Assembly: GCA_046538485.1 (NCBI GenBank)
Contig: JBKHIT010000044.1
Coordinates: forward strand, 1 to 41,271
DNA length: 41,271 bases
From: Candidatus Brocadiia bacterium
GTDB lineage: Bacteria; Planctomycetota; Brocadiia; SM23-32
Direction of reading: 5' to 3'
Made by a program: the position numbers and the translations under genes. The notes under the pieces were generated by a model that was not told the DNA's origin, did not search any database, and was given only the letters and a program-made list of their open reading frames with translations. Positions 1 through 23,294 of the stretch are shown one piece after another; position 1 is the stretch's first letter, and every line of letters begins with the position of its first letter.

Positions 1-72
1 CGTTTTTCTACTTAAATCGAAGAGGCAACTGTCCAATTCACGCTGAACCAGTACATCTCGGGCTCCGAACAT

Positions 73-275
73 GAGGTACGGCCCCACCCACGCAAGGTAG
101 GTGGTAGCCTTTTTGGGGGGAGCGGCCTGGTAGTGCAAAGGTACAGCCCCACCGACACGAGGTCGGTGGTAGCTCTTTTGGGGGAGCGGGGCCGATAGTG
201 CACAGGCGCAGCTCCTCGTAACACTTTTTCCCTTACCACCGGGTTCATCCCGGTGGGAGGGTACCTTTTGCACTA
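73..275 (-). repeat. REP-like family B cluster, inverted and diverged copy
   Basis: Hairpins CCACCGAC-ACGAG-GTCGGTGG and CCACCGGG-TTCAT-CCCGGTGG; the reverse complement aligns to parts of 3690-3940 and 10458-10776. Confidence 0.85.
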
Positions 276-324
276 CTGGCGCGTTGCCGGTCCGTAGTGC
301 AGAATGACACCAACGCCAGCAAAT

Positions 325-3300
325 TCAGTCCTTGTAGCGCCGCACCAGGACCTTCGGGGGATCGTAGGAGCGGTCGAGGATGATGAAGAACTGCTTATCC
401 ACATCCACTTCACTCTCTTCCAGATCACCGTCCCCGCTGGTATCTCTTCCGACGCGCGCCCGTCCGAGAATCGCCCAGACGTCCGTGCGGACGGTCACGA
501 GGTTATACATGAACCGTGCGAGAGCTTCGCGCCGAGCGGAGTTGGGAACGCTGGAGTCCGGATTCTCCGGCGACCCGCCATCGCCCACTTCGAATATTTT
601 AGGCACACGATTGAAAAAGTCATCCACGGAACTGAAGGGCCCGTTCGTATTTCGCTCGTCTTCAATCGCTGCAACCAGAGCCGACCGACGCGCAGCAGCA
701 TCGGCCCATAACGCCTGCAGCCTTTGTTGTTCAAAAAGAGCCGTGATTACTTGAGCAGGCGCCATATTGACGTTAATCTTTCCGCACAACCGGATCTCCG
801 GTCCCCCGCTATCGCCGTCGCCCGACCCATCATCATCGGCTGCTCCGTCACGGTCTTCATCCGCGCCGTTCTCGAACGGGCTGGTGGGACCGACGACGTA
901 ATCGAAGAAGTTCTTCGGGTACACCACATCGACGCCGGTCACAGGCGGATTTTCTGTGAGACTGAGCGTGCCCCATTCGACGCCGCTGGGGACAAACCCG
1001 AGGTAACCCGGCGAGGGGAGTTTACCGATATCCATCACCATGATCTCACCGGCCGCGCTGTACTCGGCGCCTCCTACATCGGCCGGTGGGAAACTGTGCA
1101 GCACGTTATCATCACCACTTCCCAGTTGATTCCACCGGTCGCCAGAAGGCACCTGACCCGTTCCCTGCCAGCTGCGGTTGAACCATGCCAGCTGTGTAGT
1201 ATCCTTTATCGAATCACTATGCCAACCCGGGGTCCCATCGTAGGTTCGATTCAGAATATTGACGGCCCCCCCCATGGCCCAGGCTCCATTTGTACCCACG
1301 AAGGCAAGAGTCCCGACACCGTCACCGTCAGGATCGCGCCACCGCCACCACGACGGTCGAGGATCGCCAATCTGGGTCGAAGTGGTCGCCGTTGTTACCC
1401 CGTCGCCATCGTCTTCGCCTGCATTGTCCTGCACCACAAACCGCATGACGGTCTGTCCGCTTCTTTTGAGGGTAAGCACCGTGGGGCTGCCATCGCTGGT
1501 GGCATAATCGTCTTTCACTGGAGGCGAAGTCTCTTTGGTCGGCCCGCCCGTAAACTCCTGCATACAATTGATTTCAGGCACTTGCATGTTACCCACGTCC
1601 CCGATTACATTCGCGAAGGGGCCTCCACTCAGCGCATTATCCACGATCAGGAAATGCCCACCGGCTGGAATCGTTTTATCCGGAAGTGTTATGTTCCGGG
1701 TCGGAGCCGATGTTGAATGCCATCCGTCGGGCTCACCATCCCCCGTCCAGTCTTCGAACTTCCACGTGCGCAAACCGGTTATTTCAATCGAATAATCGCT
1801 CAGATTTATAGGTTTGTTCCAGGGGTTGACCAATTTAATGTATTTCCCCCAACCGGTCGGCGGATAAAAAATCTCCGTGCCCGGCATCGTCTCCAACGTA
1901 TCCCAGGAACCATCTCCGCCATCGTAGAAACGCGTATCATCGTTGTCGTACTGTCCGTCCACACTTCCGTCATCTATCCAGATCTCTTCACCCGGATCAA
2001 AATTTGTATTTCCATTTGCATCATTGTACAGAAATTTCGCCGCTCGCCCGGGAGCTGACCCCGGATCCGAAATAGTTCCGTCGTTGGCCGGGCGGAACGG
2101 ATGCACTGAACTATCGATCCCCGCTTCCACCTCGGCGATGTACGGCGTGACTTCCACGCCCGCAAAATCGTAATTGCCGCCCCCCACAGTCAAACCCGTA
2201 GCATTTGTGGGTTCGGAATCGTCATCAAGCATATCGATCAAATTGAAGGCCACCTGCGTGAGGATAACCCTCTTTTGGTCATCTGTGGGGCTGGCGCCCG
2301 GCAATACGACGGCTTCGAGATCAAACAGGAAGTCCCGCAGGTTTTCGGCCAGCCAAACTTTCGTGCTATTGTCCGCCGTGTCCAGATTGGGCAAGCCGTT
2401 CTGCAGAGCGCGGCAAAGGTTCATATCTCCCCCCAGGGAATTCGTCAACATGGTCCCGTACTGCATAAACTCGTATCCCCCCAGATTCGACGCTGTGGTC
2501 AGGGTATTCGCAAAAGCATTACTACCACGTATCGACCGTGCCGCGAGAATTGTCCCGCCACTGCGTGTGGTGAAATATTGAAGACTATCCCCGGACAGCC
2601 CGCCGTCATCATGGAGCATACTGGTGGCCCGGCTCCCGACCACGCCCCAGAGCATATCCTGGAGATCCGTCGTGCCGAACGGTCGGTCGTACAGGTTCCC
2701 CGTGCTGGAATTGAATGCGGGATACTCCGGATCAAACTCCGTAGGTTCATCCACCGGATCGGTATCATCGCCATCGATTACCCCGCTGGCGTCAAAATCC
2801 ATATGGTCGTTGCCGAGCCGATCGTTGTCGGAATCGCCGGAAACGCCCGGGTCGGTGTCGCTTCCGTAGCGGCTTTCCCGGAGAGCTGTCACGCAGTCCG
2901 CAGCATCAGTGGCACTGACACCGAGGGATTCCAAGGTAGAGGCAAGATCAGCCTCGTGAGCGGAAAGTCCCTGCGCCTGGCCGTCGCCGGCGATGTTCAC
3001 ATCGAGACATCGTCCGCCGACGTCCACCCAGTAAAGCGCAAACTCGCCCATCTGATCCGTGCTTCCGCCCCAATCCGATCCCAGGGTGTTGAGTGCGTTC
3101 TTCCAGATCGCCCATTTGGCATCGTTGTCATTCACAACACCATCGTTGTTCGTATCTTTGATCGCAGCATCGTTGGTGCTGGCCTGGAACATCCGGTAGG
3201 TTTCCGCGCCGGGCAGCCATTCCTCATGCGGCGAATCGAAGCTTTCGTTGTCGCCGGCCAGAGCCGCATAGGTATAGCCGCACGGATAAACAGGATTAGT

Positions 3301-3579
3301 GACCGTGCCGCCACTCTCAGCGTCAAGTTTTTCAAAATCATACTGGAATTTGTTGGCGTCAGAACCGAATTTGTCGGTCTGCAGGATATCGACACAGTAG
3401 GCTTCGATGGCGGAGACGAATTCATCGATATTCTGTTCGGCTTGAAGATAACTGCTGGTGCGCAGTTCGACCCGGGAAATTATGGCAAGGGTTCCGGCCA
3501 GAAGCATAAGGACCGCCAGCAGGCCGACGACGATCACCAGGACGGTTCCGCGGCGTTTTCTGTCCCGTGAGAGTTTCAT
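325..3579 (-). CDS. Very large GspK/PilX-like minor (pseudo)pilin, 1084 aa, with Asp-rich segments, a lamin-tail-like domain and a C-terminal HhH/SAM-like region
   Basis: Class III signal RKRRG|TVLVIVVGLLAVL lacking Glu+5 (K/X type); YIKLVNPWNKPINLSDYSI...TIPAGGHFLIV (LTD-like); GKINVNMAP...ERNTNGPFSSVDDF; RBS AAGGAG; last gene of the G-H-I-J-K order. Confidence 0.8.
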   Translation of the reverse strand: MKLSRDRKRRGTVLVIVVGLLAVLMLLAGTLAIISRVELRTSSYLQAEQNIDEFVSAIEAYCVDILQTDKFGSDANKFQYDFEKLDAESGGTVTNPVYPCGYTYAALAGDNESFDSPHEEWLPGAETYRMFQASTNDAAIKDTNNDGVVNDNDAKWAIWKNALNTLGSDWGGSTDQMGEFALYWVDVGGRCLDVNIAGDGQAQGLSAHEADLASTLESLGVSATDAADCVTALRESRYGSDTDPGVSGDSDNDRLGNDHMDFDASGVIDGDDTDPVDEPTEFDPEYPAFNSSTGNLYDRPFGTTDLQDMLWGVVGSRATSMLHDDGGLSGDSLQYFTTRSGGTILAARSIRGSNAFANTLTTASNLGGYEFMQYGTMLTNSLGGDMNLCRALQNGLPNLDTADNSTKVWLAENLRDFLFDLEAVVLPGASPTDDQKRVILTQVAFNLIDMLDDDSEPTNATGLTVGGGNYDFAGVEVTPYIAEVEAGIDSSVHPFRPANDGTISDPGSAPGRAAKFLYNDANGNTNFDPGEEIWIDDGSVDGQYDNDDTRFYDGGDGSWDTLETMPGTEIFYPPTGWGKYIKLVNPWNKPINLSDYSIEITGLRTWKFEDWTGDGEPDGWHSTSAPTRNITLPDKTIPAGGHFLIVDNALSGGPFANVIGDVGNMQVPEINCMQEFTGGPTKETSPPVKDDYATSDGSPTVLTLKRSGQTVMRFVVQDNAGEDDGDGVTTATTSTQIGDPRPSWWRWRDPDGDGVGTLAFVGTNGAWAMGGAVNILNRTYDGTPGWHSDSIKDTTQLAWFNRSWQGTGQVPSGDRWNQLGSGDDNVLHSFPPADVGGAEYSAAGEIMVMDIGKLPSPGYLGFVPSGVEWGTLSLTENPPVTGVDVVYPKNFFDYVVGPTSPFENGADEDRDGAADDDGSGDGDSGGPEIRLCGKINVNMAPAQVITALFEQQRLQALWADAAARRSALVAAIEDERNTNGPFSSVDDFFNRVPKIFEVGDGGSPENPDSSVPNSARREALARFMYNLVTVRTDVWAILGRARVGRDTSGDGDLEESEVDVDKQFFIILDRSYDPPKVLVRRYKD

Positions 3580-3590
3580 AATTGTCTCCT

Positions 3591-4160
3591 TTAACGGCAG
3601 GGTTTAGTTGTTAGTTGCTGGTTCCTGGTTCCTGGTTGCTGGTTGACTGGAGCTGGTGAACAGATAACGGACTGGAGCAGGTTGTTGTTTGGTGCGGAGG
3701 TACCCTCCCACCGAGGTAAACTCGGTGGTAGGGTGCGGCGGGTCCGGGGCGTCGAATCAGGCACTGACTTTTTGCAGGCTACCGCTGACCCTGTGTCACC
3801 GGGGCTATCGTTCTGCATGAGGGACGCATTCTTCCGCAAAAAAGCTACCACTGACCTTGTGTCAGTGGAGCTGTACTTCTGCACTAAAGAGCCACGCACA
3901 CCAAAAAGGTTACCACCGACCTTGTGTGACCGTACTTCGTGTGGGAAGCAAAACCTCCGGGCGGAGCGTTTTGGAATGCCATGCACTGGTGCCGGTTTCG
4001 ATGTGTTGCATCCGGCGGCCAGGAGCATTCTCTGCATAACGGGGATGTTTACGGATCCGACGCGTGCGGTGCCCCGCGCGCCAACGGCGCGCTCTGGAGT
4101 GCGGTGTGTTGCGCCGCATGGCGCACTCACCGCTATGCCGTTTATTCTTTTCAGTCTCAT
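3591..4160 (-). CDS. Putative repeat-encoded bridge ORF (189 aa) between RAYT and the K-type pilin
   Basis: AAGGTG-N5-ATG 19 nt after the RAYT stop; open through repeats A0 and B; stops 11 nt before the next ATG; translation unproven. Confidence 0.3.
   Translation of the reverse strand: MRLKRINGIAVSAPCGATHRTPERAVGARGTARVGSVNIPVMQRMLLAAGCNTSKPAPVHGIPKRSARRFCFPHEVRSHKVGGNLFGVRGSLVQKYSSTDTRSVVAFLRKNASLMQNDSPGDTGSAVACKKSVPDSTPRTRRTLPPSLPRWEGTSAPNNNLLQSVICSPAPVNQQPGTRNQQLTTKPCR
3604..3645. repeat. Tandem heptamer repeat, 6 units
   Basis: TTAGTTG x2, CTGGTTC x2, CTGGTTG x2. Confidence 0.8.
3665..4002 (+). repeat. REP-like family B cluster, direct repeat copy 1
   Basis: Near-identical to 10431-10840 except a 66 bp and a 6 bp indel and a few substitutions; hairpins CCACCGAG-GTAAA-CTCGGTGG and CCACTGAC-CTTGT-GTCAGTGG. 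Confidence 0.95.
4003..4142 (+). repeat. Family A half element A0 (spacer plus right REP)
   Basis: GCGCGCCAACGGCGCGC hairpin then TGGAGTGCGGTG...CTCACCGCTATGCCGTT; left REP absent, abuts family B. Confidence 0.85.
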
Positions 4161-4179
4161 CGGAGCACCTTAAAACGAT

Positions 4180-4716
4180 TCAGAAATTATCCGGCACTTT
4201 CACCCTATCGATCTTGAAACTGTCAAGCGTTCTACGGAAAGCCGAAGTTGCGTTGTCCTCAAACCACCGTGCTGAACACCAGCGATACTGCAGAGGATCG
4301 TCGGCCTTTTCGTGTTTCACTGGATTGTTATGAACATATTTCAGTCTGGAAAAATATGACTTCTGCGATGTTATGCGAGTGTCCCAGTAATTACTCCACA
4401 CTTTGCGGCCCTCTTCTCCATCCCACCCATTGCATTTTCTGGCCGTCTCTCTGTGCAACAACGATATCAAATCTCTCAGGCTCGCCGGGTTTTGTTCGCA
4501 TAAGCCGATGAAATGATAATGGTTTTCAAATACCGTCCATGCCTGGAGCTGCCAACCATAATCTTTGCTGGTCGAGAATAACATGTCGTGGAGATAATTA
4601 AGTCTTTCCGGACCACGGAATACCGGTTTTTTCCGATATGTGCTGCCGGTAACGATATAAACACCGGCATCACCCAGTTTGTGAACCGGAGCATGATGCC
4701 AATCCGTGGTTTTCAT
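4180..4716 (-). CDS. rayT: REP-associated tyrosine transposase (RAYT / TnpA-REP, HUH Y1 family)
   Basis: YIVTGSTYRKKPVF, HUH motif NHYH, catalytic Tyr in YVHNNPVKH, YRWCSA; 178 aa; flanked by REP hairpins; no tnpB adjacent. Confidence 0.93.
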   Translation of the reverse strand: MKTTDWHHAPVHKLGDAGVYIVTGSTYRKKPVFRGPERLNYLHDMLFSTSKDYGWQLQAWTVFENHYHFIGLCEQNPASLRDLISLLHRETARKCNGWDGEEGRKVWSNYWDTRITSQKSYFSRLKYVHNNPVKHEKADDPLQYRWCSARWFEDNATSAFRRTLDSFKIDRVKVPDNF

Positions 4717-4728
4717 TCTATTTGCACC

Positions 4729-5019
4729 TCAGTTAGAGCTTAGAAACGACAACGGCAACAGCGAACGGCAACAACGAACGACATAGCGGTGAAGAATCAC
4801 CGCACTCCATAGCCGGCTTCGCCGGCGGGGTTCATACATGCGCTGGTTTTTGCCGCTTGGTTCGGCACGGGACATTTCCCGGAACCCCGGGATGTTTACG
4901 GAACCGGCCCGTGTGCTGAGCCGCGCGCCCGCGGCGCGCTGTGGAGTGCGGTGTGTTAAAACGGGGCTACCCGTTTTACTCACCGCTATGTCGTTCCGGA
5001 ATATGTGAGTTCTCATCAT
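4729..5019 (-). CDS. Putative repeat-encoded bridge ORF (96 aa) upstream of RAYT
   Basis: GGAG-N7-ATG; open through A1; its TGA lies within the RAYT RBS (TGAGGTG); translation unproven. Confidence 0.3.
   Translation of the reverse strand: MMRTHIFRNDIAVSKTGSPVLTHRTPQRAAGARLSTRAGSVNIPGFREMSRAEPSGKNQRMYEPRRRSRLWSAVILHRYVVRCCRSLLPLSFLSSN
4776..4996 (+). repeat. REPIN-like family A element A1 (inverted REP doublet, spacer type Z)
   Basis: Perfect 17 bp terminal inverted repeat GAACGACATAGCGGTGA / TCACCGCTATGTCGTTC; inner CACCGCACTCCA / TGGAGTGCGGTG. Confidence 0.92.
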
Positions 5020-5167
5020 CTTCCATCTCCGCGTTACCACACGCTTAAGAGCCGTTCACTACCGACTCGCCGTCACTCTCTCAACTCCGTTCTTTCCGTC
5101 GAAGATTCGCCCGTACGGCGAATTAACTCTTAGCTTTCTCCAGTCTGTTACTCAGACTCATATCTCA

Positions 5168-6019
5168 CTACGGTATTTCCACCAACCGCCGGATCACCAG
5201 CGGGTTGCGTTCCTCTTCCTGCAAACCACCTTCGGAGCCCACGATTTCCATGGTAATTTCGACTATGTCCGGCTCCCCCGCATTTTGTTGTTCCGTTGGC
5301 CCCGTAATACTATCCCAACTTTGATACCATGTGTCAGTACTCTGTAGATAATACCGCACCCGAAACTGACGGAATCCAAAAGCTACTGTGTAACTATCTT
5401 CTGAGGAATTCACACCTTCAAGCACATCCCCTGGCGTCCCAGCTGCGAGCAAAAAATGTTCATCGAGATCGCTGGCGTTAGGATCCGCATCGGTGCTGTC
5501 ATCGTCATTATCACCATCGTAGCCAGGCAATTGGATTCGTATTAGCTTGTAAGGGGTCGGATCAGCGTGGCTGTCTGTATCCGGTACTACATAGTAAATG
5601 ACTCGCCAAGGTTCAGCGCCGTCAGCCCCATTCGTTGTAAAAAATTCCAGGCCATTTTCTTCTTGGCCACCAGTATTGTCGAATTCATCGTAATCGTCGG
5701 TAAAATCACCATTAGCATTGTTATCCACTCGGTACGAAGTAGAATTCCCGGAATCGACTCCCAGGAAAACGGCGCCTGATTCCGTTGAAGGTTTCAGAAG
5801 TTCGCTAAGATCATCGTCTATCAATTTCACCGCCGCATGTCCGTTATGCATGGCATCGATTGTGGAGCGGGAATGTTTGAAGACGGCGGTGCCCTGGCTG
5901 AAGGCCACGACGACGACGCTCATGATGATGGCACCGAGCGCCACCGCTACCAGCATCTCAACCAGCGTGAAAGCGGAGCGTCTTTTCGGTTGTTTTCTTT
6001 CTTGTCTCCGTGCGATCAT
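5168..6019 (-). CDS. Minor pilin, GspJ/PilW-like
   Basis: RSA|FTLVEMLVAVALGAIIM methylation motif; C-terminal FRVRYY...WDS...PDIVEITM typical of J-type; RBS AGGAGGAGG before the ATG at 6019. Confidence 0.85.
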   Translation of the reverse strand: MIARRQERKQPKRRSAFTLVEMLVAVALGAIIMSVVVVAFSQGTAVFKHSRSTIDAMHNGHAAVKLIDDDLSELLKPSTESGAVFLGVDSGNSTSYRVDNNANGDFTDDYDEFDNTGGQEENGLEFFTTNGADGAEPWRVIYYVVPDTDSHADPTPYKLIRIQLPGYDGDNDDDSTDADPNASDLDEHFLLAAGTPGDVLEGVNSSEDSYTVAFGFRQFRVRYYLQSTDTWYQSWDSITGPTEQQNAGEPDIVEITMEIVGSEGGLQEEERNPLVIRRLVEIP

Positions 6020-6046
6020 CGGGTCCGTCCTCCTCCTGTCCACGGG

Positions 6047-6946
6047 TTACGGATTGATTGTCGAACTGTACAGGGCCACGAGATGATGTCGACTCGCGAT
6101 CTCGACCGTATGTCCGGTCAGCTGTCCTCCATCGTCCAGTGTCGGATTCTTGAACGCCCTGACAAGCCGCACGCGGCTGTTGCTCTGGTCGATGGCGGCA
6201 ATTCTGTACCAGATGCCCACCTCCGTACTTCTAAGATAATCCTGGGCGCGGATTTCATCCCAATCAGGGTCTGTTGTGAACTCGACCCACTGACTATCCT
6301 GGGTGAACGTCGCACTTCCAGAATCATCTTCGATCTTGTAGTTTCTCCACACGGCGACCTGAACGTTCCAGTTTGTGTCTTGTTTAATTCCATTTTCAGC
6401 GTACGGATCGTCTCCGGGCGCTGGCCCGTTCTCATCTGACTTACCATCCCCATCATCATCAAAAGGAACCGGCGTTAACGTAGCCGTCCATCCATAGTCG
6501 GGGTTCTCCGGGCATTTAACATAGTCCGACCCATCCAGATCCGAATCGGTGTGAACAGCATCGGGGTAAATCTGGAACGTCGGATTCATATTCCCGTGGC
6601 CTCTTGTCTCTGTCGAACAGAAATCATGCAGCGCAGCACACATGTTATCCCAGGGCTGGTCACCAAGAGTTTTAGTTTTTCCGTTTGAAAACTGCCCCCT
6701 ACCGTAACCATCGGAAAGATGCAGTGAATACTGTTTCAAGCTCACGATAGCGCTTCTCCCGATCGAATCCGCCACGTAGCGGTTCTTTGCGGTCGTGACG
6801 TTTCGTATCGCGAGGGGGAATATGGCGCAAATGCCCATCATACCGACGGCGAGGATACCGATCGCGATCAGGATCTCCACCAGCGTGAAACCCAGTCGGG
6901 CGTTTTCTTGCCCATCTCTCTTGTGGCTCGTGAAAAACCGTACCAT
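6047..6946 (-). CDS. Minor pilin, GspI/PilV-like
   Basis: RLG|FTLVEILIAIGILAVGMMGICAIFP; RBS AAGGAG before the ATG at 6946 (alternative ATG at 6970 overlaps the upstream TGA). Confidence 0.85.
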   Translation of the reverse strand: MVRFFTSHKRDGQENARLGFTLVEILIAIGILAVGMMGICAIFPLAIRNVTTAKNRYVADSIGRSAIVSLKQYSLHLSDGYGRGQFSNGKTKTLGDQPWDNMCAALHDFCSTETRGHGNMNPTFQIYPDAVHTDSDLDGSDYVKCPENPDYGWTATLTPVPFDDDGDGKSDENGPAPGDDPYAENGIKQDTNWNVQVAVWRNYKIEDDSGSATFTQDSQWVEFTTDPDWDEIRAQDYLRSTEVGIWYRIAAIDQSNSRVRLVRAFKNPTLDDGGQLTGHTVEIASRHHLVALYSSTINP

Positions 6947-6966
6947 TTCGTTTTTCTCCTTCTCGA

Positions 6967-7773
6967 TCATTCTTCGACGGAGCGTGTCATACCACTCGCA
7001 TACGTCACGTCGATCCGGACGATCTTCTCCCTGGCGTTGTCCGAGAGCCAGACCGACCAGTTGCAGGCTTCGCCCTGCGGGTTCCATTCGTGGAACGGAT
7101 CCTCATCGATGATTCCGTCTCCATCGTCATCAGTGCCCGGCATATCTTCATCTATGTCGCCGTCGCCATCATCATCATCGTCCCCATCCCCATCGGCATC
7201 CCCGGCCGGATCTTCATCTATGGAGCCGTCGCTATCATCATCAATTCCATCGACGGCATTGGGGTCTATACCATCTTCGTCAGTCGAACCATCACCATCG
7301 ACATCCCAGCCCCCCCCGCCGGGCCAGGCCTCAGCGAGCAACCCTCCCGATCGCGTGAACACAATTGCCCGGGAGATCTCATTGTTTTTCGGCGGGGAGG
7401 GAGACTTGGCTCTGATTGTGCATCCGCTCCGCGTCGGGTAGACCGGGAATTTGCAGCCGGATGGTAGATATTGAACTTTACCAATCGCGCCAAGGTCTGC
7501 GACCGTATTGCCGGCGTAAGCTCTCACGGAGCTTTCCTCTTTATCGAACAGCACGACCGTCTGCCGTCCGTGCAGCACGGCATAACTGCGCGCCTGGTAG
7601 AGCATCGATTTGACGATGCGCGCGCCACCGCGCAGGGCGCGACCTTCCAGCATCGGCATCATCGCCGCCACGCTCATAGCCGCCACAAGCGTGATGATAG
7701 CAATCACCACCAGCAGTTCCGTGAGCGTGAACGCACGGGCGGGAGGGCGACGGGGTATCTTTGGATTTTTCAT
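6967..7773 (-). CDS. Minor pilin, GspH/FimT-like, with Asp-rich repeat insert
   Basis: ARA|FTLTELLVVIAII...LYQARSYAV; IVFTRSG; repeated DGxDDDxDGxIDED; GGAG RBS before the ATG at 7773. Confidence 0.85.
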   Translation of the reverse strand: MKNPKIPRRPPARAFTLTELLVVIAIITLVAAMSVAAMMPMLEGRALRGGARIVKSMLYQARSYAVLHGRQTVVLFDKEESSVRAYAGNTVADLGAIGKVQYLPSGCKFPVYPTRSGCTIRAKSPSPPKNNEISRAIVFTRSGGLLAEAWPGGGGWDVDGDGSTDEDGIDPNAVDGIDDDSDGSIDEDPAGDADGDGDDDDDGDGDIDEDMPGTDDDGDGIIDEDPFHEWNPQGEACNWSVWLSDNAREKIVRIDVTYASGMTRSVEE

Positions 7774-7774
7774 G

Positions 7775-8050
7775 TCAGTCTCCAGGGGGAAAAGTGAAAG
7801 CGGTGCTCCGTCCGCCTTTGGGCGGACTCCCCACCGCACTCCAAAGCCGGCTTCGCCGGCAAGGTTCATGCATAGGCTGAGTGTTGTTCCATCCTGCGGC
7901 GGAGAAGAATTTCCGTAACTCGGCGATGTCGACGGAACCGGCGGGTGCGGTGTGCCGCGCGCCAACGGCGCGCTGTGGAGTGCGGTGTGTTAAAACGGGG
8001 CTACCCGTTTTACTCACCGCTGTGCCGTTCTGGAACGTGTCATAATTCAT
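7775..8050 (-). CDS. Putative repeat-encoded bridge ORF (91 aa)
   Basis: GGAG-N7-ATG; ATGA overlap with the upstream repeat ORF; TGA 1 nt before the pilin ATG; translation unproven. Confidence 0.3.
   Translation of the reverse strand: MNYDTFQNGTAVSKTGSPVLTHRTPQRAVGARHTAPAGSVDIAELRKFFSAAGWNNTQPMHEPCRRSRLWSAVGSPPKGGRSTAFTFPPGD
7797..8030 (+). repeat. Family A element A2 (long left REP, spacer X)
   Basis: AAAGCGGTG-CTCC-GTCCGCC-TTTG-GGCGGAC-TCCC-CACCGCACTCCA ... TGGAGTGCGGTG-TGTTAAAACGGGGCTACCCGTTTTAC-TCACCGC. Confidence 0.92.
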
Positions 8051-8346
8051 ATCATTTCTCCATAACGACAACGGAGAACGACGAACAAGAACAACGAACG
8101 ACAACAACATAGCGGTGAAGAATCACCGCACTCCATAGCCGGCTGCCGCCGGCGGGGTTCAGATATGGGCTGATATTTGTTGCATCCCGCGGCAAGCAAC
8201 ATTTTCAGGACCCCCGGGATGTCGGTGGAACGGGCCCGGCCAATGTCCCGCGCGCCCACGGCGCGCTGTGGAGTGCGGTGTGTTAAAACGGGGCTACCCG
8301 TTTTACTCACCGCTGTGTCGTTCTGGAACGCTTTACCTCTCATCAT
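8047..8346 (-). CDS. Putative repeat-encoded bridge ORF (99 aa)
   Basis: GGAG-N7-ATG; ends in an ATGA overlap with the next repeat ORF; translation unproven. Confidence 0.3.
   Translation of the reverse strand: MMRGKAFQNDTAVSKTGSPVLTHRTPQRAVGARDIGRARSTDIPGVLKMLLAAGCNKYQPISEPRRRQPAMECGDSSPLCCCRSLFLFVVLRCRYGEMI
8107..8323 (+). repeat. Family A element A3 (short left REP, spacer Y)
   Basis: CATAGCGGTGAAGAATCACCGCACTCCA ... TGGAGTGCGGTG...TCACCGCTGTGTCGTTC. Confidence 0.92.
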
Positions 8347-8446
8347 CTCTCATCTCCGCATTACTACCGACTATCTACTACCGACTCCTTTTCCAATCCG
8401 TTACTCCATTCACTTTCACCCGCCTCAGGCGGTCTCAACTCTAAAC

Positions 8447-9013
8447 TCAATTCCCCCCCCCTCCGCGTCTCACCCAGTTGACGATATCGTCGCCGACGTT
8501 TTTCGGGTTTTCGCTCGTGGGATTATGGTTTGGCGGTGTATCATCGGTCCCATTCGGTCCCAACGACCAGATATCGAGGTCGGGCCGATTAAAACCACCT
8601 TTCAATATCCTGATCGGATTCTCCCAGGGATCCACAACCTGCGGGTCGCCGCCGCTGTCCTCCTGGATCGCCGCGCCGGTGGTGCCTTCGGCTTTCCCGC
8701 CGGTATCGGCTTCCATCAGGATACGGGCCACGGTTTCATTCGGAATCAGACCGCTTCCCCCGGCCGTTGGCCAGCTTCCGTAAAGATCGCGATATTCTTC
8801 GAGGGCCGTTTCGGTGCGTTGAAGGAGCATATAGGTGTTGTCACGTTTCGCTCTTTCGCGCACCTGATGGCTTGCGGCCAGAATCATCCCGGCCAGCATG
8901 CCGATGATCGCCACAACGACCAGAATCTCAATCAGTGTGAATCCCCCGCGGGCGGTGTCCGCAGAGCAGCGCTGGGATTCGGGAGCAGGATTTGTTTGAT
9001 TACCGGATCTCAT
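8447..9013 (-). CDS. GspG-like major (pseudo)pilin 2
   Basis: RGG|FTLIEILVVVAIIGMLAGMIL; DPWENP, DIWSLGPNG, GDDIVNW (T2SS G-type C-terminus); RBS GGAGG. Confidence 0.9.
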   Translation of the reverse strand: MRSGNQTNPAPESQRCSADTARGGFTLIEILVVVAIIGMLAGMILAASHQVRERAKRDNTYMLLQRTETALEEYRDLYGSWPTAGGSGLIPNETVARILMEADTGGKAEGTTGAAIQEDSGGDPQVVDPWENPIRILKGGFNRPDLDIWSLGPNGTDDTPPNHNPTSENPKNVGDDIVNWVRRGGGGN

Positions 9014-9040
9014 GTGTCTTCCTCCGCGAGGGCTGTGTTT

Positions 9041-9128
9041 CCAAACATACGAGAAGAATCAAGATTATCGGTTGCTTCGGCTTTGTTTATAGCGCGGGCA
9101 CTACCTTTGTGACGGCACAGAAGTGAAA
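9041..9128 (+). repeat. 88 bp linker repeat E, copy 1
   Basis: Colinear and similar to 10856-10943 (GAGAA.AATCAAGAT.ATCGGTTG.TTCGGCTTTGT...CAGAAGTGAAA). Confidence 0.75.
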
Positions 9129-9383
9129 GCGGTGCTCCGTCCGCCTTCTGGCGGACTCCCCACCGCACTCCATAGCCGGCTGGCGCCGGCGGGGTTCAGA
9201 TATGGGCTGATATTTGTTGCATCCCGCGGCAAGCAACATTTTCAGGACCCCCGGGATGTCGGTGGAACCGGCGCGTGCGGTGTCCCGCGCGCCAACGGCG
9301 CGCTGTGGAGTGCGGTGTGTTAAAACGGGCCTCAGGCGCGTTTTACTCACCGCTGTGCTGTTCCGGAATGTGTCATACTTCAT
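9087..9383 (-). CDS. Putative repeat-encoded bridge ORF (98 aa)
   Basis: GGAGGGAG RBS; ATGA overlap with the upstream repeat ORF; stops 73 nt before the pilin ATG; translation unproven. Confidence 0.25.
   Translation of the reverse strand: MKYDTFRNSTAVSKTRLRPVLTHRTPQRAVGARDTARAGSTDIPGVLKMLLAAGCNKYQPISEPRRRQPAMECGGESARRRTEHRFHFCAVTKVVPAL
9126..9363 (+). repeat. Family A element A4 (long left REP, spacer Y)
   Basis: Left end nearly identical to A2; spacer nearly identical to A3. Confidence 0.92.
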
Positions 9384-9676
9384 ATCGCTCCCTCCACAAC
9401 GACAACGGATAACGACAAACGGCAACAACGAACGGCACAGCGGCGATGAATCGCCGCACTCCATAGCCGGCTTCGCCGGCGGGGTTCAGGCATAGGCTGA
9501 GTGTTGTTCCATCCTGCGGCGGTGATCATCTTCCGCAACGCCGGGATGTTGGCGGAACGGGTGCGTGCGGTGTCCCGCGCGCCAACGGCGCGCTGTGGAG
9601 TGCGGTGTGTTAAAACGGGCCTCAGGCGCGTTTTACTCACCGCTGTGCTGTTCTGTAATACGTCATCTCTCATCAT
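9380..9676 (-). CDS. Putative repeat-encoded bridge ORF (98 aa)
   Basis: GGAG-N7-ATG; ends in an ATGA overlap; translation unproven. Confidence 0.3.
   Translation of the reverse strand: MMRDDVLQNSTAVSKTRLRPVLTHRTPQRAVGARDTARTRSANIPALRKMITAAGWNNTQPMPEPRRRSRLWSAAIHRRCAVRCCRLSLSVVVVEGAI
9430..9653 (+). repeat. Family A element A5 (short left REP, spacer X)
   Basis: GCGGCGATGAATCGCCGC left hairpin; body nearly identical to A6. Confidence 0.92.
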
Positions 9677-9746
9677 CTCTCATCTCCACATCACTACCGA
9701 GTTCTCTTCCAATCCGTTACTCAGTTCACTCTTAACCGTCGTTCTC

Positions 9747-10367
9747 TTACCAATTTCCGATATCGTCGCCGAGATCATCGATATCGTCTTTCGTCGGGGG
9801 GGTGGCCATATTGACAACTTCATCCACCCCATCGTAACCGGCCGACCATATATCGATGGTGTTCGAATTGATATTAGATGCATCCCACGATCCTTCATCA
9901 TCGTTATTGTCGAATCGGAAACAATTGACCGTGCGGTCCTCTCGGAACGGATCGCGGTATTCTTCGTTCCCATCACCATCGCTGTCAAGGAGCCGGTCGG
10001 CCTGAAAATTGAAATAGGCATCGGCGTTTTTCGTGGCTCCCACTTCCGAGCCCGAAGGTGAAACGCGGAACGTGGTGCCGAGATAATAGACAATGGCCTC
10101 TTCTGAATCGTTCTCATCCACGGTCGCGTCGCCATCGAAATCATTATTCGGCGGGTACGCATTCCAATCCCGTTCGTAGGCGACAAACGCGGTTTCGAGT
10201 CCGCGGATTTCGGTTTTCGTCGCCCCTTTTTTCGCCGCGACGCGTGCGGCGTGGATGGCGGGCATCAGCATGGCGGCGAGTATACCGATGACGGCGATCA
10301 CAACGAGCATCTCCACGAGCGTGAACGCCCGGTGGGCGCGGCGACGGGTGATCTTTGGATTTTTCAT
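9747..10367 (-). CDS. GspG-like major (pseudo)pilin 1
   Basis: HRA|FTLVEMLVVIAVIGILAAMLMP; YERDWNAYPP; DIWSAGYDG...GDDIGNW. Confidence 0.9.
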   Translation of the reverse strand: MKNPKITRRRAHRAFTLVEMLVVIAVIGILAAMLMPAIHAARVAAKKGATKTEIRGLETAFVAYERDWNAYPPNNDFDGDATVDENDSEEAIVYYLGTTFRVSPSGSEVGATKNADAYFNFQADRLLDSDGDGNEEYRDPFREDRTVNCFRFDNNDDEGSWDASNINSNTIDIWSAGYDGVDEVVNMATPPTKDDIDDLGDDIGNW

Positions 10368-10368
10368 G

Positions 10369-11304
10369 TCAGTCTCCAGGGGGAAAAGTGAACGGAGTAA
10401 CGGGCCGGGGTAAGCTTTGAGTGAATTGAGTAACGGACTGGAGCTGGTTGCTGTTTGGTGCGGAGGTACCCTCCCACCGAGATAAACTCGGTGGTAAGGA
10501 AAACGCGCGCTGGAGTCCTTTTAGTGCAGAGGTATCCGCCCACCGAGACAAGCTCGGTGGTAGGGTCCGGCGGGTCCGGGGCGTCGAATCAGGCACTGAC
10601 TTTTTGCAGGCTACCGCTGACCCTGTGTCACCGGGGCTATCGTTCTGCATGAGGGACGCATTCTTCCGCAAAAAAGCTACCACTGACCTTGTGTCAGTGG
10701 AGCTGTACTTCTGCACTAAAGAGCCACACGCACCAAAAAGGTTACCACCGACCTTGTGTCGGTGGGACCGTACTTCGTGTGGGAAGCAAAACCTCCGGGG
10801 GGAGCGTTTTGGAATGCCATGCACTGGTGCCGGTTTCGATTTCCTTCGTACGCTCCCAAACGGGCGAGAAAAATCAAGATCATCGGTTGGTTCGGCTTTG
10901 TCTCTTGCGCGGGATCTGTTTTTGCAATGGCGCAGAAGTGAAATCGCTGCCCCCCATGGGGGTTTCCCGGGGGAAAGTGCGCCGGTTTTCATGGAACTTA
11001 TCTGCATCTGGATAGCTCCCTCCAGACCGACAACGGATAACGGCAAACGGCAACAACGAACGACATAGCGGCGAAGAATCGCCGCACTCCATAGCCGGCT
11101 TCGCCGGCGGGGTTCATGCATAGGCTGAGTGTTGTTCCATCCTGCGGCGGTGATCATCTTCCGCAACGCCGGGATGTTGGCGGAACGGGTGCGTGCGGTG
11201 TCCCGCGCGCCAACGGCGCGCTGTGGAGTGCGGTGTGTTAAAACGGGCCATTGGTGCGTTTTACTCACCGCTGTGTCGTTCTGTGATATGTCGTCTCTCA
11301 TCAT
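10369..11304 (-). CDS. Putative repeat-encoded bridge ORF (311 aa) across A6, E and B
   Basis: GGAG-N7-ATG at 11304; open for 936 bp through three repeat types; TGA 1 nt before the pilin ATG; translation unproven. Confidence 0.3.
   Translation of the reverse strand: MMRDDISQNDTAVSKTHQWPVLTHRTPQRAVGARDTARTRSANIPALRKMITAAGWNNTQPMHEPRRRSRLWSAAILRRYVVRCCRLPLSVVGLEGAIQMQISSMKTGALSPGKPPWGAAISLLRHCKNRSRARDKAEPTDDLDFSRPFGSVRRKSKPAPVHGIPKRSPRRFCFPHEVRSHRHKVGGNLFGACGSLVQKYSSTDTRSVVAFLRKNASLMQNDSPGDTGSAVACKKSVPDSTPRTRRTLPPSLSRWADTSALKGLQRAFSLPPSLSRWEGTSAPNSNQLQSVTQFTQSLPRPVTPFTFPPGD
10431..10840 (+). repeat. REP-like family B cluster, direct repeat copy 2
   Basis: Near-identical to 3665-4002, with one extra 66 bp REP unit and an intact last hairpin. 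Confidence 0.95.
10856..10943 (+). repeat. 88 bp linker repeat E, copy 2
   Basis: Similar to 9041-9128. Confidence 0.75.
11058..11281 (+). repeat. Family A element A6 (short left REP, spacer X)
   Basis: GAACGACATAGCGGCGAAGAATCGCCGCACTCCA ... TCACCGCTGTGTCGTTC. Confidence 0.92.
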
Positions 11305-11392
11305 CTCTGATCTCCACTTCACTTCCGACTAGCCACTACCGGTTCCGTCTTGACTCTCTCCAATCCGTTACTCAGTTCACTCTCAACTGTCG

Positions 11393-12658
11393 TTACGACA
11401 GCGAGGACATAATCGAGATGAGGGGCATGAAAAGTGCGATCACGATTCCACCGATAACCAGGCCGAGGCCGATAATCATGATTGGCTCCATCAGGCTCGA
11501 AAGTCCTTCCACCATGGTATCGACCTGTTCATCGTAGTCATCGGAAATACGAATAAGCATATCGTCGAGGTTACCGGTTTCCTCTCCGACATCGATCATA
11601 TTGACCACCATATCTTCGCAGACATTGGATTGTCCCAGGGGACGTGCGATCGGTTCACCTTCGCGGATGCTGTCATGGACATCGGTCAGCGCCGTGGACA
11701 ACACAACATTTCCCACGGTATCGCGCGTGATACTGAGAGCTTCAAGAATAGGAACACCACTGGTGATCAGTGTACCGAAGGTCCGGGTGAAGCGCGCGAC
11801 GGAACTTTTCCGGCTGAGGGTTCCGAAAATCGGGATATGAAACTTAACCCAATCGGTGGCATATCGACCGGCGCGGGAAGAGCGGATCAATTTATAGAGC
11901 ACGAAGATTCCGAAAGGGATAGCGGGTAAGAGGTACCAGTAGCTGGTCGCGAAGCTGGTCACCATCAGCAGAATTTGAGTTGGGAGAGGTTTTTCCACCC
12001 CGAGTTCCTCGAACATCTTCATAAACTCAGGGATAATAAAGATGATAAGCAGGGCGAGGATAACACTGGCGAACCCCAGGACGGCAACGGGGTAGATCAT
12101 GGCTCCGAGGACGCGGCGTTTGAGTCGTGCGGCTTTTTCGCGGAATTCGGCCAGCCGGGTCAACACCAGATCGAGCACACCGCCGGCTTCTCCGGCTTTC
12201 ACCATGTTGACGTAGAGTTCATCGAAGGCTTTGTTGTGCTGCGACATAGCTTCCGAGAGGCTGCTTCCTCCTTCGACATCTTCAGCGACCTCGACGAGAA
12301 TATTTTTCAGGGCACACGGGCGCATCTGTTCGTGGAGAATATTGAGACTTTGCACGACAGGAATACCCGCATCGGTCAGAGTCGCAAGCTGGCGTGTGAA
12401 AGTGTTAAGATCTTTGGCTCTTACCCCGCCGATGACAATCTGTTTTCTTTTTTTGGGCTTTCCCCGCGCTGCCGCGCCCTGGCCTTTACCGGATTCTTTT
12501 TTCTTTTTCTTCTTCCCCCCCCCGAGTTCTTTCACTCGCGTGGGGAAAAGTCCCATATCGCGGATCTGGGAGACCGCTTCATCCGTGTTACGTGCATCGA
12601 CTTCACGGCGAACCGTCTTTCCGTCGCTGTCCATCGCCTCACATTGGAATGTTGGCAT
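11393..12658 (-). CDS. pilC: Type IV pilus / T2SS inner membrane platform protein (PilC/GspF)
   Basis: FTRQLATLTDAGIP, MVKAGEAGGVLD, AMIYP, GEETGNLDDML, LMEP; GGAGG RBS before the ATG at 12658 (MPTF). Confidence 0.95.
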   Translation of the reverse strand: MPTFQCEAMDSDGKTVRREVDARNTDEAVSQIRDMGLFPTRVKELGGGKKKKKKESGKGQGAAARGKPKKRKQIVIGGVRAKDLNTFTRQLATLTDAGIPVVQSLNILHEQMRPCALKNILVEVAEDVEGGSSLSEAMSQHNKAFDELYVNMVKAGEAGGVLDLVLTRLAEFREKAARLKRRVLGAMIYPVAVLGFASVILALLIIFIIPEFMKMFEELGVEKPLPTQILLMVTSFATSYWYLLPAIPFGIFVLYKLIRSSRAGRYATDWVKFHIPIFGTLSRKSSVARFTRTFGTLITSGVPILEALSITRDTVGNVVLSTALTDVHDSIREGEPIARPLGQSNVCEDMVVNMIDVGEETGNLDDMLIRISDDYDEQVDTMVEGLSSLMEPIMIIGLGLVIGGIVIALFMPLISIMSSLS

Positions 12659-12770
12659 CTTTTGCACCTCCAGCCTAAATTGCCCGTAATACGTCCTTTC
12701 GCGCTATGACACCTGGTTTTCAAGACTTTTCTGTGTGCTAATTTTTAGGGCCGTTACGCCCACTATTTGT

Positions 12771-12799
12771 ATTATGCCGCCCGGAACTCCGTTTGTCAA
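12771..12799 (-). promoter_or_regulatory. Sigma70-type promoter for the pilC-pilin operon
   Basis: TTGACA-N17-CATAAT on the minus strand, about 110 nt upstream of pilC. Confidence 0.7.
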
Positions 12800-12999
12800 G
12801 ACTTTTTTTTGAGAAGAGTGTGCGCTGTCGGTCGTTGCGCTATTTGGCAGCGCTGGATTAGTTTGAGATTGCCGCCGATTCCCGAACGGAACAGGGCGCA
12901 AATTCCTCTGGTTTCCCCGGGGACCCTCTTTAAAGCTCGTTATGCAACTGACCACTTAGCGGCAAAGATTGTGTGTGCGCAGTCCCGCTTGTTGACCGC

Positions 13000-13205
13000 G
13001 TTCTGAACTCCAGCCCGCAGGAGCGGTTCTGAAGTCCAGTCCGCTCATGGGAAATGTAGACTTGAGTTCAACTGAGTTCGCCACCGGCGGGCGAAACTGG
13101 ACTTGAGGCGGACAATGGCTCAGACGTGTCAAGATGCGCGGGGATTCGACCGAATTGACCCGCGTGCTGAACTCCAGCCTACGGCTGAAGTGCAGTCCGC
13201 TCCTG
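13000..13205 (+). repeat. REP-like family C cluster
   Basis: TGAACTCCAGCC-N-(GG)CTGAAGT.CAGTCCGCTC twice plus GACTTGAGTTCA...TGGACTTGAGGCGGAC; inverted homolog at 40374-40521. Confidence 0.85.
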
Positions 13206-13278
13206 TGATAGGGCATTTCGGGAGCCTGTGGACCGGGTCGTCAGGCGCGGAAGGGGTTTATGCCGGGCTGAATGCCCG

Positions 13279-18276: not shown

Positions 18277-19176
18277 ATGGGGAAAATCAACCGTCTGCTA
18301 TCACCGCAAATGGTCTCGAAAATCGCCACTGTTGTGCTCCGAGCCAGGCATCTTGTGGAAGGGACTTTGAGCGGAATTCACAAGAGCCCCCACAAAGGTT
18401 CAAGCGTCGAGTTTCTGGAACATAAACGCTACACCCCCGGCGACGAAATCAAAAATATCGACTGGAAACTTGTCGCCCGCAGCGATCGGATCTACGTCAA
18501 ACAGTTTGAGGATGAAACGAATCTCAGGGCTATGCTCGTGGTCGATAACAGCCGTTCGATGAATTATGGCCCAACCGGTCGCAAAAAAATCGAATACACG
18601 CAGTTGGCCGCAGCGGCATTCTGCTATCTATTGCTGAGCCAATCGGACGCCGCCGGCCTGCTGAGCCAGCAAGGGGACAAACGGCTCTATGTGCCACCCC
18701 GCGGGAACTGGTCCCACTACCGTGCCATAACCGGCGCTCTGGGGGGGCTGCAAGCCAGGGGGCAAAATCACTGGCTTGACCATCTCATTGAATTGGCGAG
18801 TTCTTTTCGCAAACGCAGCATGTTTCTGATCTTCACCGACTTGCTGGTAGAGCGGGAAGACATGCTCACCGCTTTGCGGTTGCTCAAAGATCGCCGTCAG
18901 GAGGTTTTGATGTTCCATATCCTCCATCCCTACGAAGTCGAATTCCCGTTCGACGGACCGCGGATGTTTCGGGACTTAGAAAATCCCGAGCTTAATATCC
19001 TGGCCGATCCCGAAACCACCCGTCAACAATACCAGGAACGGGTTGATGAACTTAAACGGTTTTACCGGGATAAAATGGCCCGAATGGAGCAAGAATACCA
19101 TTTCCTGCGAACCGATAACCCGCTCGAACAATCACTTGTTCATTATTTGGCTCGCCGCGAGGCCCGGGCTCCGTGA
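18277..19176 (+). CDS. DUF58 (vWA-like) family protein
   Basis: GIHKSPHKGSSVEFLEHKRYTPGDEIKNIDWK...YVKQFEDET...VVDNSRSM. Confidence 0.9.
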   Translation: MGKINRLLSPQMVSKIATVVLRARHLVEGTLSGIHKSPHKGSSVEFLEHKRYTPGDEIKNIDWKLVARSDRIYVKQFEDETNLRAMLVVDNSRSMNYGPTGRKKIEYTQLAAAAFCYLLLSQSDAAGLLSQQGDKRLYVPPRGNWSHYRAITGALGGLQARGQNHWLDHLIELASSFRKRSMFLIFTDLLVEREDMLTALRLLKDRRQEVLMFHILHPYEVEFPFDGPRMFRDLENPELNILADPETTRQQYQERVDELKRFYRDKMARMEQEYHFLRTDNPLEQSLVHYLARREARAP

Positions 19177-19254
19177 AATTCGACCCGCTTTACCCTATAC
19201 TTTCGTATTGCTCTTTCCCCGGTTTACTGAACTTTTCCCTTTCTGAGATCAATC

Positions 19255-21497: not shown

Positions 21498-21566
21498 GTT
21501 CTCGAGAGAGGGGACCCCGCACTTCAACCTGATTGGTTTCAAAGCTATTGCGAAAGGAACAAGAAC

Positions 21567-22958: not shown

Positions 22959-23035
22959 CGAAACTGGCCCGGAAGAGCTTTCTGCCTATCATGACAAACC
23001 ACTGGAAACCCGATTTCGTATCACGTATAAATGGT

Positions 23036-23064
23036 TTGACCGTGCAGCAGCCTTATCGTATGAT
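23036..23064 (+). promoter_or_regulatory. Putative sigma70 promoter upstream of the kinase
   Basis: TTGACC-N17-TATGAT. Confidence 0.55.
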
Positions 23065-23294
23065 TTCGTAGTGCTTGGCCCGCCCGGTTTTTTGGCCGAG
23101 AAAATCTGCGAACGGTATTTACCAAAATACATTCATTAACCTGACAAAAGGTGCTTCAAGTTATCCGTAAAATCCGCGCGGGAGGCAAGATAGGGAGCTT
23201 TAGTGGCATTACATAGGTATACAGAGGCCAAAACACGTTTTGGTGAATTTTCATTTACCCTGTATTTTTCAAACACGGGCGACGGGGGTCCGAT

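Follow-up and report, generated by a model that had tools for sequence, protein, structure and literature searches.

Does a RAYT gene lying among pilin genes, with palindromic repeats in the gaps around them, mark a locus at which pilins are rearranged, or a repeat system that has multiplied inside an ordinary operon? The question is raised by the first 13 kb of the window, the stretch of 41,271 nucleotides analysed here. A pilC/gspF platform gene (11393..12667, PF00482 above cut-off) is followed by two GspG-like pilins, G1 (9747..10367) and G2 (8447..9013), the minor pilins H (6967..7773), I (6047..6961) and J (5168..6019), a RAYT gene (4180..4716) and a large K-like minor pilin of 1084 residues (325..3579), all on the minus strand. 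A sigma70-like promoter predicted 5' of pilC on the same strand (12771..12799) has 11 of 12 consensus matches and a 17-nt spacer, and ranks first among 14 sites found (7.3 expected). An earlier sequence-only reading had described pilC-G-G-H-I-J-K on one strand behind one sigma70 promoter, with an intact, co-oriented RAYT between J and K, and this description holds.

The gene set fits a type IVa pilus operon, with PilB and PilT ATPases, a PilC platform and prepilins carrying the methylation motif; the gene run is pilB-pilT-pilB-pilC, then major and minor pilins. The pilT family and prepilin N-methyl models scored above cut-off, PF07963 and TIGR02532 being passed by all five G, H, I and J proteins, and the PilB, PilC and G to K subfamily models scored below. 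The labels G, H, I, J and K combine sub-cut-off NCBIfam matches with position; they are accompanied by orthology for G2, H, I and J, by orthologues of G1 in four genomes (G001, G012, G013, G020) and, for K, by weak GspK matches and orthologues in G012, G013 and G045. H, I, J and K are each single-copy within the assembly. The H-I gap (5 nt) and the I-J gap (27 nt) are module-free, which makes H-I-J one unbroken block, and the operon carries about 3.5 kb of gap DNA filled with repeats.

The RAYT/TnpA-REP protein has 178 residues and passes model NF047646 marginally (80.7 bits, cut-off 80). Against the IS200 transposase model NF033573 it reaches 20 for a cut-off of 55, and thus scores as a RAYT. 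It carries H66-Y67-H68 and Y127, the pair of metal-binding histidines and the single catalytic tyrosine expected of a Y1 HUH protein; H66, H68 and Y127 are invariant in all 22 alignment rows, and Y127 aligns with Y115 of 4ER8, the residue changed in a catalytic mutant (PMC8266576). The nearest paralogue is 53% identical and lies on contig C21, where it also has a GGAGTG-footed hairpin, the only REPs on this 5-kb contig being the flanking ones; no near-identical second copy occurs in the assembly, which is 88% complete.

Seven units of repeat family A lie in the gaps: a truncated one 3' of the RAYT gene, fused to a B copy (4001..4142); A0 upstream of the RAYT gene (4730..5040); the tandem pairs A1 + A2 in the G2-H gap (7799..8370) and A3 + A4 in the G1-G2 gap (9121..9700); and A5 in the pilC-G1 gap (11012..11328), which folds at z = -5.59. 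The six full units are REPINs, inverted doublets with a structured spacer, and all seven units have the same orientation, as direct repeats. Family B forms three clusters, in the RAYT-K gap (3665..4002), in the pilC-G1 gap (10431..10840) and, in opposite orientation, after K (62..300). The tally of seven A units and three B clusters given earlier was therefore correct, one A unit being truncated. No Pfam family matched the open reading frames that cross the A units.

Local enrichment of A is strong. A profile trained on the local copies gave 86 matches on 47 contigs, with 8 at 1-13250 against 0.22 expected, these 8 being the seven units plus one reverse self-match. This is the top 13.2-kb interval of the genome for A matches, the next best having 5. 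A plain-pattern search placed 13 of the 51 A-type REP arms of the genome at 4096-11271 (7.2 kb) and 38 elsewhere. Six of 18 genome-wide B matches are local, in the three clusters. Family C has 297 matches on 83 contigs, with one local against 0.76 expected; its cluster at 12990..13215 belongs to a genome-wide family and is not locus-specific. The genome-wide mapping called for by the sequence-only reading bears out a local concentration of A, but not of C. The interval 18277-37813, reported as free of A, B and C, was likewise empty in profile searches, and A and C copies recur at 40360-40940.

The foot of the A hairpin is GGAGTG, not the canonical GTAG or GTGG. In the supplement of PMC6006769 this foot is catalogued for one subclass 2.2 TnpA-REP, from Chloroflexus; the RAYT described here resembles that member in its foot. 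A GGAGTG-footed hairpin lies within 600 nt at 65 of 80 RAYT homologue loci, and the gene in the window is flanked by such arms at 4096, 4808 and 4943, which pairs A with this RAYT clade as its cognate REP. In the long-loop arm the clade foot is intact in 7/7 local copies versus 1/12 dispersed arms with the same flank (Fisher P 1.6e-4); the plain-pattern search added two dispersed arms whose foot is intact but whose flank differs. Judged by sequence, the local copies look like a sub-family partly distinct from the dispersed units. A tree groups them with two dispersed copies, but is unreliable given their mosaicism. Beyond the immediate flanks, up to 6 kb, 8 arms are found here, a number equalled by one homologue locus in 80, the tandem array L084. 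The density is thus at the top of the range of the clade, and as an instance of a known repeat system the locus is unusually dense.

The other repeats have different affiliations. C flanks a different RAYT, on contig C90, and with no local enrichment it was not counted as part of the RAYT-A system. The C90 RAYT sits between two prepilin-like genes; the genome has 123 such genes, which was taken as the base rate. B flanks none of 86 homologue loci, so its candidacy as a substrate of the RAYT clade is unsupported, and none of the remaining Y1 genes in the assembly has a B match nearby. Segment D is a local-only duplicate pair, 79% identical (9041..9138 and 10856..10953). The short repeat E lies directly after the pilC stop (11354..11394), with further copies at 9704-9743 and 8377-8422, an inverted one at 10419-10442, and others on other contigs.

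The unusual feature of the locus is exchange between its gaps. The six full A copies are mosaic, their nearest partner differing by segment (permutation P 0.003, from 23 spacer sites alone). The B copy at 3665..4002 matches 10524-10840 over 317 nt at 95%, non-repeat tail included, with about 270 nt at near identity. A5 with its flanks matches A4 over 314 nt at 94%, and the whole G2-H gap matches the G1-G2 gap over 587 nt at 81.6%. One tract reaches coding DNA: the ribosome site, start codon and prepilin leader of G1 (10340..10392) and of H (7746..7798), both on the minus strand, are 96% identical over 53 nt, a sequence found nowhere else in the assembly. The tract stops at the common prepilin codons, upstream of the cleavage site, and over the first 60 nt of their mature parts G1 and H share 65% identity, a level seen in other pairs too. 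Of the exchange via modules suggested earlier, the swapping of sequence among modules, with one tract into the G1/H coding leaders, is borne out, but exchangeable pilin cassettes are not.

Gene order is that of five genomes of the same family, as far as their contigs reach, and H-I-J-K agrees with five outgroup genomes; the relatives listed include none of the same genus. They have one-to-one pilin orthologues, tight gaps and no RAYT. Similarity among the pilins of the operon is confined to the N-terminal helix: past residue 30, G1 and G2 match over 36 residues only (E 3.6e-4) and other pairs have E values of at least 0.047, while the G1 orthologues match at 33-38% beyond the helix. The distance between G2 and the cleavage site of H is 43-70 nt in relatives versus 715 here. 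In G045, of another genus, an A-type REPIN occupies the same J-K gap, although the whole genome holds no more than 10 arms, spread over 6 loci. The gap may therefore be a site of long standing or a favoured one. A tandem K duplication, 42% identical, follows the REPIN. The J-K gap of G012 has no REPIN. An alternative order within the family, G-H-K-J-I, forms one well-supported PilC clade of 14 rows, with no RAYT and no A, B or C match in the regions examined, and is therefore read as an ancient single event; K is labelled there by position and weak matches. The PilC match of G024, a paralogue without pilins, was left out of the tree. Two metagenome scans with J gave no match, and the seven homologues of K that were found lack gene context.

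Neither the RAYT clade nor its repeats favour pilins. A prepilin lies near one of the 80 homologue loci (L094, with the RAYT upstream of gspF-gspG), which rules out an association. With crude ORF calls of at least 250 residues, A adjoins 1 of 118 other prepilins and 34 of the 2358 remaining long ORFs; the corresponding counts are 0 and 9 for B, and 10 and 185 for C; without an excess at these prepilins, targeting of pilins by the repeats is also ruled out. In G021 and G041 the RAYT clade is present elsewhere in the genome, and the pilin operons have no REP. A non-pilin parallel is provided by G024, where six REP modules of the same orientation lie in the gaps of a filamentous prophage. That contig has no RAYT, so a present-day local REP cluster does not require a RAYT in cis.

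Population variation was read from Logan contigs of runs X1-X4, covering 15 of 64 joints in one set and 15 of 20 in another. The modules present vary among related strains. Some joints, if read literally, would delete genes (9136->10952 in X4; 4785->11020 and 4783->11052 in X3; 9461->11090 in X1). One X3 contig exits at 5064, runs through an E-like module and re-enters at 5178, so deletion-like joints can be module swaps; G1, G2, H, RAYT and pilC each have contigs in the runs with such joints. Within G2 and I the strains vary in internal loops, at a distance from the modules. Partial codon differences in X3 (synonymous/non-synonymous: H 11/2, G2 7/6, RAYT 2/3) are too few for a selection test.

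Taken together, the locus is read, with a probability of roughly 0.7, as a REPtron whose REPINs have proliferated locally in a conventional type IV pilus operon of ancestral gene order, the RAYT being the presumed cause. The RAYT and its cognate A repeats sit in the J-K gap, and the repeats have likely multiplied into neighbouring gaps by RAYT-started cut-and-rejoin. The enzyme may nick A hairpins in single-stranded DNA close to its own gene; new units would then be inserted, and old ones converted, by strand transfer or by host repair templated on a nearby copy. Flanking DNA would sometimes be carried along; the B cluster, segment D and the G1/H leader are passengers copied between gaps. Selection for a complete pilus would purge products that delete or reorder genes, leaving only the gaps and the cleaved-off leader to change. 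Some of the later mixing may be RecA-type recombination rather than the work of the RAYT.

Host homologous recombination could also have made the tracts, by tandem duplication and collapse or by conversion, using direct repeats and the F-T-L codons, after the RAYT had seeded only the first repeats. The uniform orientation of the seven A units (chance 0.016), the homology of two whole gaps, the long near identity of the B copies, the end of the leader tract at common prepilin codons, the G024 cluster on a contig without RAYT and the K duplication in G045 are all consistent with this. It leaves unexplained, however, why the densest cluster surrounds the RAYT and why the foot is kept in local arms, and new modules in formerly tight gaps require a non-homologous first step. 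Depth in X1 over unique pieces is even (27-33), and no standing amplification is visible. This explanation is considered unlikely. A bolder version of the preferred reading is less likely still: the J-K gap would be an old REPtron site, and the RAYT a cis-preferring conversion engine that moves copies of repeat-bounded DNA from gap to gap, rewrote one pilin's start of translation, and yields rare variants in which G1, G2 or the minor-pilin block is missing or doubled, to the benefit of the host.

It is quite improbable that the modules are kept as tuners of the transcript, with hairpins after pilC, G1, G2 and J governing read-through or the stability of the mRNA, and with the copied leader restarting translation of H. 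PMC3184786 cites a part for REPs in attenuation and in stabilising mRNA, and also links Neisseria repeats to NIME. A block of E plus A follows the stops of pilC, G1 and G2, and that of J in X3; terminator-like B hairpins precede G1 and K on the sense strand; and with the widened G2-H spacing H would need its own start once insertions had broken coupling to G2. Yet the relatives run the same operon module-free, the regional count of terminator-like hairpins is near chance (18 versus 13.1), and the modules vary between strains.

It is very improbable that the locus is adaptive in the sense of the sequence-only reading, with pilin cassettes being shuffled, converted or lost through the RAYT. The local enrichment is real, one exchange entered pilin coding DNA, deletion-like joints occur among strains and G045 has its REPIN in the J-K gap. 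Against this, comparison with relatives shows the ancestral order kept, and the supposed cassettes are non-homologous genes with one-to-one orthologues and no silent copies, three of them in the module-free H-I-J block. The coding tract covers only the cleaved-off leader, variation in G2 and I lies elsewhere, the X3 module swap offers another source of joints, and no preference for pilins exists. The locus is most likely not a pilin-shuffling machine.

It is hardly credible that assembly of a repeat-rich metagenome bin produced the mosaic or misplaced the RAYT. No listed contig spans the stretch, breaks fall on either side of the RAYT (3765-4069 and 4810-4958), and the sole X1 contig compared has other letters at 4897-4908. 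But X2 agrees with the window there, and fully identical X1 pieces (100%) take each gene into adjoining modules, although X1 is not independent, as it may be the sample from which the assembly came. The assembled order is that of the relatives, the copies differ by 4-25%, and contigs of both X1 and X3 break at 7786, in the common leader.

Several known systems invite comparison. In Neisseria, several homologous silent pilS cassettes donate to one expressed gene, pilE, and the conversion tracts fall in the part of the mature protein exposed at the surface. Both loci have repeats among their pilin genes and traces of non-reciprocal transfer, but the one described here has different subunits, no silent homologous cassettes or variable expression copy, and a tract confined to the removed leader. 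Shufflons have inverted recombination sites around alternative gene ends and a site-specific invertase, whereas the A units here are all direct repeats, the genes are all on one strand, and no invertase family matched among the 11 genes scanned. Type IVa pilus and type II secretion operons of the G-H-I-J-K kind have the same pilB-pilT-pilB-pilC run and pilin order, without the inserted RAYT and the repeat-filled gaps. Described REPtrons share several traits with the locus: an HUH-Y1 gene between inverted REP doublets, further doublets across the genome, mosaic and tandem higher-order units, and, with the Chloroflexus entry, the foot. They differ in their usual foot, to which GGAGTG is a known exception. 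This cluster spans four gaps over about 7 kb of one operon, includes three further kinds of repeat and has duplicated a coding leader. In Marinomonas sp. MWYL1, REPs of the REPtrons Ma and Mb are concentrated near their own tnpA, which was read as local multiplication after recent arrival (PMC8266576). The concentration is alike here, but most arms lie elsewhere, the dispersed sub-family is partly distinct and the host locus is a pilus operon.

A literature search for RAYTs with pilins or pili gave no relevant system in the texts available, and a pilin-diversifying role for a RAYT is not shown by this locus. The E. coli TnpA-REP cleaves and recombines in vitro, and capture of flanks has been proposed from it (PMC3333891); the spread of REPINs by RAYTs in vivo and the gain to the host are presented as still open in PMC5581495 and PMC3333891. 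To this the locus adds a natural record of local spread, with seven foot-intact copies around the enzyme, segment-wise mosaicism and captured flanks. The captured ribosome site and leader peptide fit the prediction of the in vitro model, and the locus supplies junctions and a foot variant, local versus dispersed, in a RAYT clade without biochemistry in the cited papers.

The assembly (5.19 Mb in 143 contigs, 88% complete) carries on the minus strand the run pilB-pilT-pilB-pilC, followed by the prepilin genes G1, G2, H, I and J, the RAYT gene, and K, encoding a large K-like minor pilin; the subunit letters G to K are based on NCBIfam matches under threshold and on position. Together with a promoter-like site upstream of pilC (11 of 12 consensus matches), the gene calls agree with the layout proposed by the sequence-only reading, namely pilC-G-G-H-I-J-K on one strand behind a promoter, with the RAYT between J and K. 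That the RAYT is intact was also confirmed: it narrowly passes the NF047646 cut-off, residues H66, H68 and Y127 are kept in 22 of 22 aligned rows, and it aligns with E. coli TnpA-REP (4ER8). Positions 1–55, at the contig start, recur with full identity at the ends of C16, C90, C77, C58 and C1, so that another repeated element follows K. At 38522–39334, an ankyrin-like ORF has an early stop after a run of G, possibly a frameshift.

The same reading had considered the pilin genes as exchangeable cassettes. This was rejected by comparison with 23 pilC regions of relatives, one of which is a paralogue without pilins. The order G-G-H-I-J-K is complete in genomes G012 and G045, and holds to the contig limit in G001, G013 and G020. 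In five genomes from other families, H-I-J-K is preceded by one to three G genes. The rest of the family has G-H-K-J-I or a prefix of that order, and those of them in a PilC tree, built without G008 (broken pilC), form one clade. Past the N-terminal helix, each pilin is 26–41% identical to its own orthologue and hardly matches its neighbours, and H, I, J and K occur once each in the assembly. No RAYT match was found in the 23 regions. The distance from stop codon to cleavage site is 805 nt between G1 and G2, against 74–94 nt in relatives, and 715 nt between G2 and H, against 43–70 nt. Since the order is shared with relatives, whose gaps are tight, and each pilin has its own orthologue, the gene order is, from these comparisons, ancestral and the gaps derived.

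The gaps are filled by repeats. Family A is a REPIN of two inverted hairpins about 135 nt apart, with the foot GGAGTG and a folding z of −5.6. Six full units and a truncated one lie in four gaps, all in the same orientation. A profile search gave 86 matches on 47 contigs, with the operon as the top 13.2-kb window (7 units versus 0.22 expected); as the profile was built from local units and favours local copies, a plain pattern served as a cross-check and placed 13 of 51 arms genome-wide within 4096–11271. Six of the 18 matches of family B are also at the operon. The enrichment expected of the repeats thus held for A and B and failed for C, which has 297 matches genome-wide. Family C was discarded as part of the system, as it is not enriched locally and flanks a different RAYT on both sides elsewhere (C90:47427–48098, between two prepilin-like genes). 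Around the 118 other prepilin-like genes of the genome, none of the three families is enriched. The clade foot is kept in all 7 local long-loop arms; of 12 dispersed arms that share their flank, 1 has it, and the plain pattern revealed two further dispersed arms with an intact foot. The A unit at 40731–40938, adjoined by a C cluster at 40360–40525, is 99.5% identical to C110:42792–42999 and is a recent long-range copy within the dispersed A sub-family. Two more dispersed families, at 12825–12945 and 10955–11011, have about 20 and 6 copies elsewhere; one of them separates the C cluster from the pilC promoter. On C99 (37205–37942), two Rhs-repeat genes enclose a RAYT-like gene of greater length, whose ends bear short inverted motifs.

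The RAYT clade was surveyed at its best 80 genomic loci, from many phyla: an A-type hairpin lies within 600 nt of the RAYT in 65, and a prepilin gene within 6 kb in one. This sole pilin-adjacent locus, in a Kiritimatiellales bin (L094, 1514–4818), combines a same-clade RAYT with 13 REP arms and immediately precedes a gspF-gspG-gspH-like cluster. The REP density of the operon is at the top of the range of the 80 loci. A RAYT paralogue on C21 (53% identity) is also flanked by an A-type hairpin, and the PMC6006769 supplement gives the GGAGTG foot for a subclass 2.2 protein of Chloroflexus. Family B had no match at 86 loci of RAYT homologues. Two family members with a RAYT of this clade elsewhere in the genome (G021, G041) have pilin operons free of the REP. 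In the literature covered, mostly outside subscription papers, no described system coupling a RAYT with pilins or pili was found.

Exchange between gaps is clear. The six full A units are mosaic: the nearest partner of a unit differs between its segments, and sites that are incompatible cluster in space, also when the spacer is taken by itself (23 sites, P 0.003). An alignment of 587 nt at 81.6% links the G1-G2 gap with the G2-H gap; one A unit of the G1-G2 gap (A4) and the unit of the pilC-G1 gap (A5) align with their flanks over 314 nt at 94%. A B cluster with its unique tail recurs as a 317-nt copy at 95%, fused into the truncated A adjoining the RAYT. Segment D has two copies in the assembly, both at the operon. 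A 53-nt tract common to G1 and H (96%) runs over the ribosome site and start codon into the leader peptide, most of which it covers; it occurs at no other place in the assembly. Over the 60 nt upstream of the cleavage site the two genes are 87% alike, against 17–35% for the other nine local pairs; in eight relatives, 79 of 80 pairs reach at most 43%, the exception being one pair in G030 at 72%. In that genome (L043), several leader peptides resemble translated short heptamer-type repeats. The mature parts of G1 and H are not homogenised. Host recombination between direct repeats may be behind part of the mosaic.

Six DNA runs from two studies contain the stretch as contigs, of which four were compared. 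X1 is probably the source sample: its unique pieces are 100% identical to the window at depths of 27–33, each gene linked to adjacent modules, and none of the pieces listed crosses the repeats left or right of the RAYT. X3 and X4 contain related strains whose contigs cover RAYT, H, G2, G1 and pilC. Their modules are arranged differently: among the joints listed (15 of 64 and 15 of 20), an E-like module comes after J (5064 to 11344, returning from 11388 to 5178), G2 is preceded by D and pilC-gap sequence (9136 to 10952), and tails are swapped ahead of the RAYT (4785 to 11020; 4783 to 11052); X1 has a joint from 9461 to 11090. Taken literally, the last four would delete pilin genes, and contigs alone are ambiguous; module swaps are favoured because one joint returns and the depth is even. 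Within genes, strains vary in internal loops of G2 (8493–8550) and I (6371–6442). Differences in X3 are bunched in short tracts of H (7564–7636, mostly synonymous) and G2 (8700–8759), a pattern suggestive of alleles exchanged between strains.

Neisseria cassettes and shufflons provide the background for comparison. The broad form of an adaptive rearrangement system is improbable here. In G024, the gaps of a filamentous prophage hold six modules with this type of REP, all in one orientation, on a contig with neither pilin nor RAYT, so that colonisation of several gaps is not pilin-specific. This filamentous-phage-like prophage (C442, 2178–12953) follows a tmRNA gene, encodes a Rep (PF23343), a Zot-family ATPase and a secretin, and holds 4 of the 7 strict-pattern arms of G024; single-stranded phage is a possible preferred RAYT substrate. 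Two results pull the opposite way: the top-of-range REP density of the operon, and the J-K gap of another genome. In G045, from a different genus, an A-type REPIN sharing only the REP core with A lies exactly in the J-K gap (C313, 7642–7782), without a RAYT and ahead of two tandem K genes that are 42% identical (1549–7447); this genome carries just 10 arms, spread over 6 loci, and the J-K gap is tight in G012. The G045 unit may mark an old REPtron site (RAYT gene with its REPs) from which the RAYT has gone, a loss described in certain strains of E. coli (PMC3333891), or may be an independent insertion.

The locus is a genuine REPtron of unusual density, set within a pilus operon. Most likely, the RAYT would nick single-stranded A in the neighbourhood of its gene; units would then be inserted and converted by strand transfer, or by repair off a nearby copy, sometimes with flanking DNA. 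In vitro, the TnpA-REP of E. coli cuts and recombines BIMEs, and flank capture has been proposed for it (PMC3333891); REPs of Marinomonas cluster close to their tnpA (PMC8266576). Selection for a complete pilus would purge the gene-level products.
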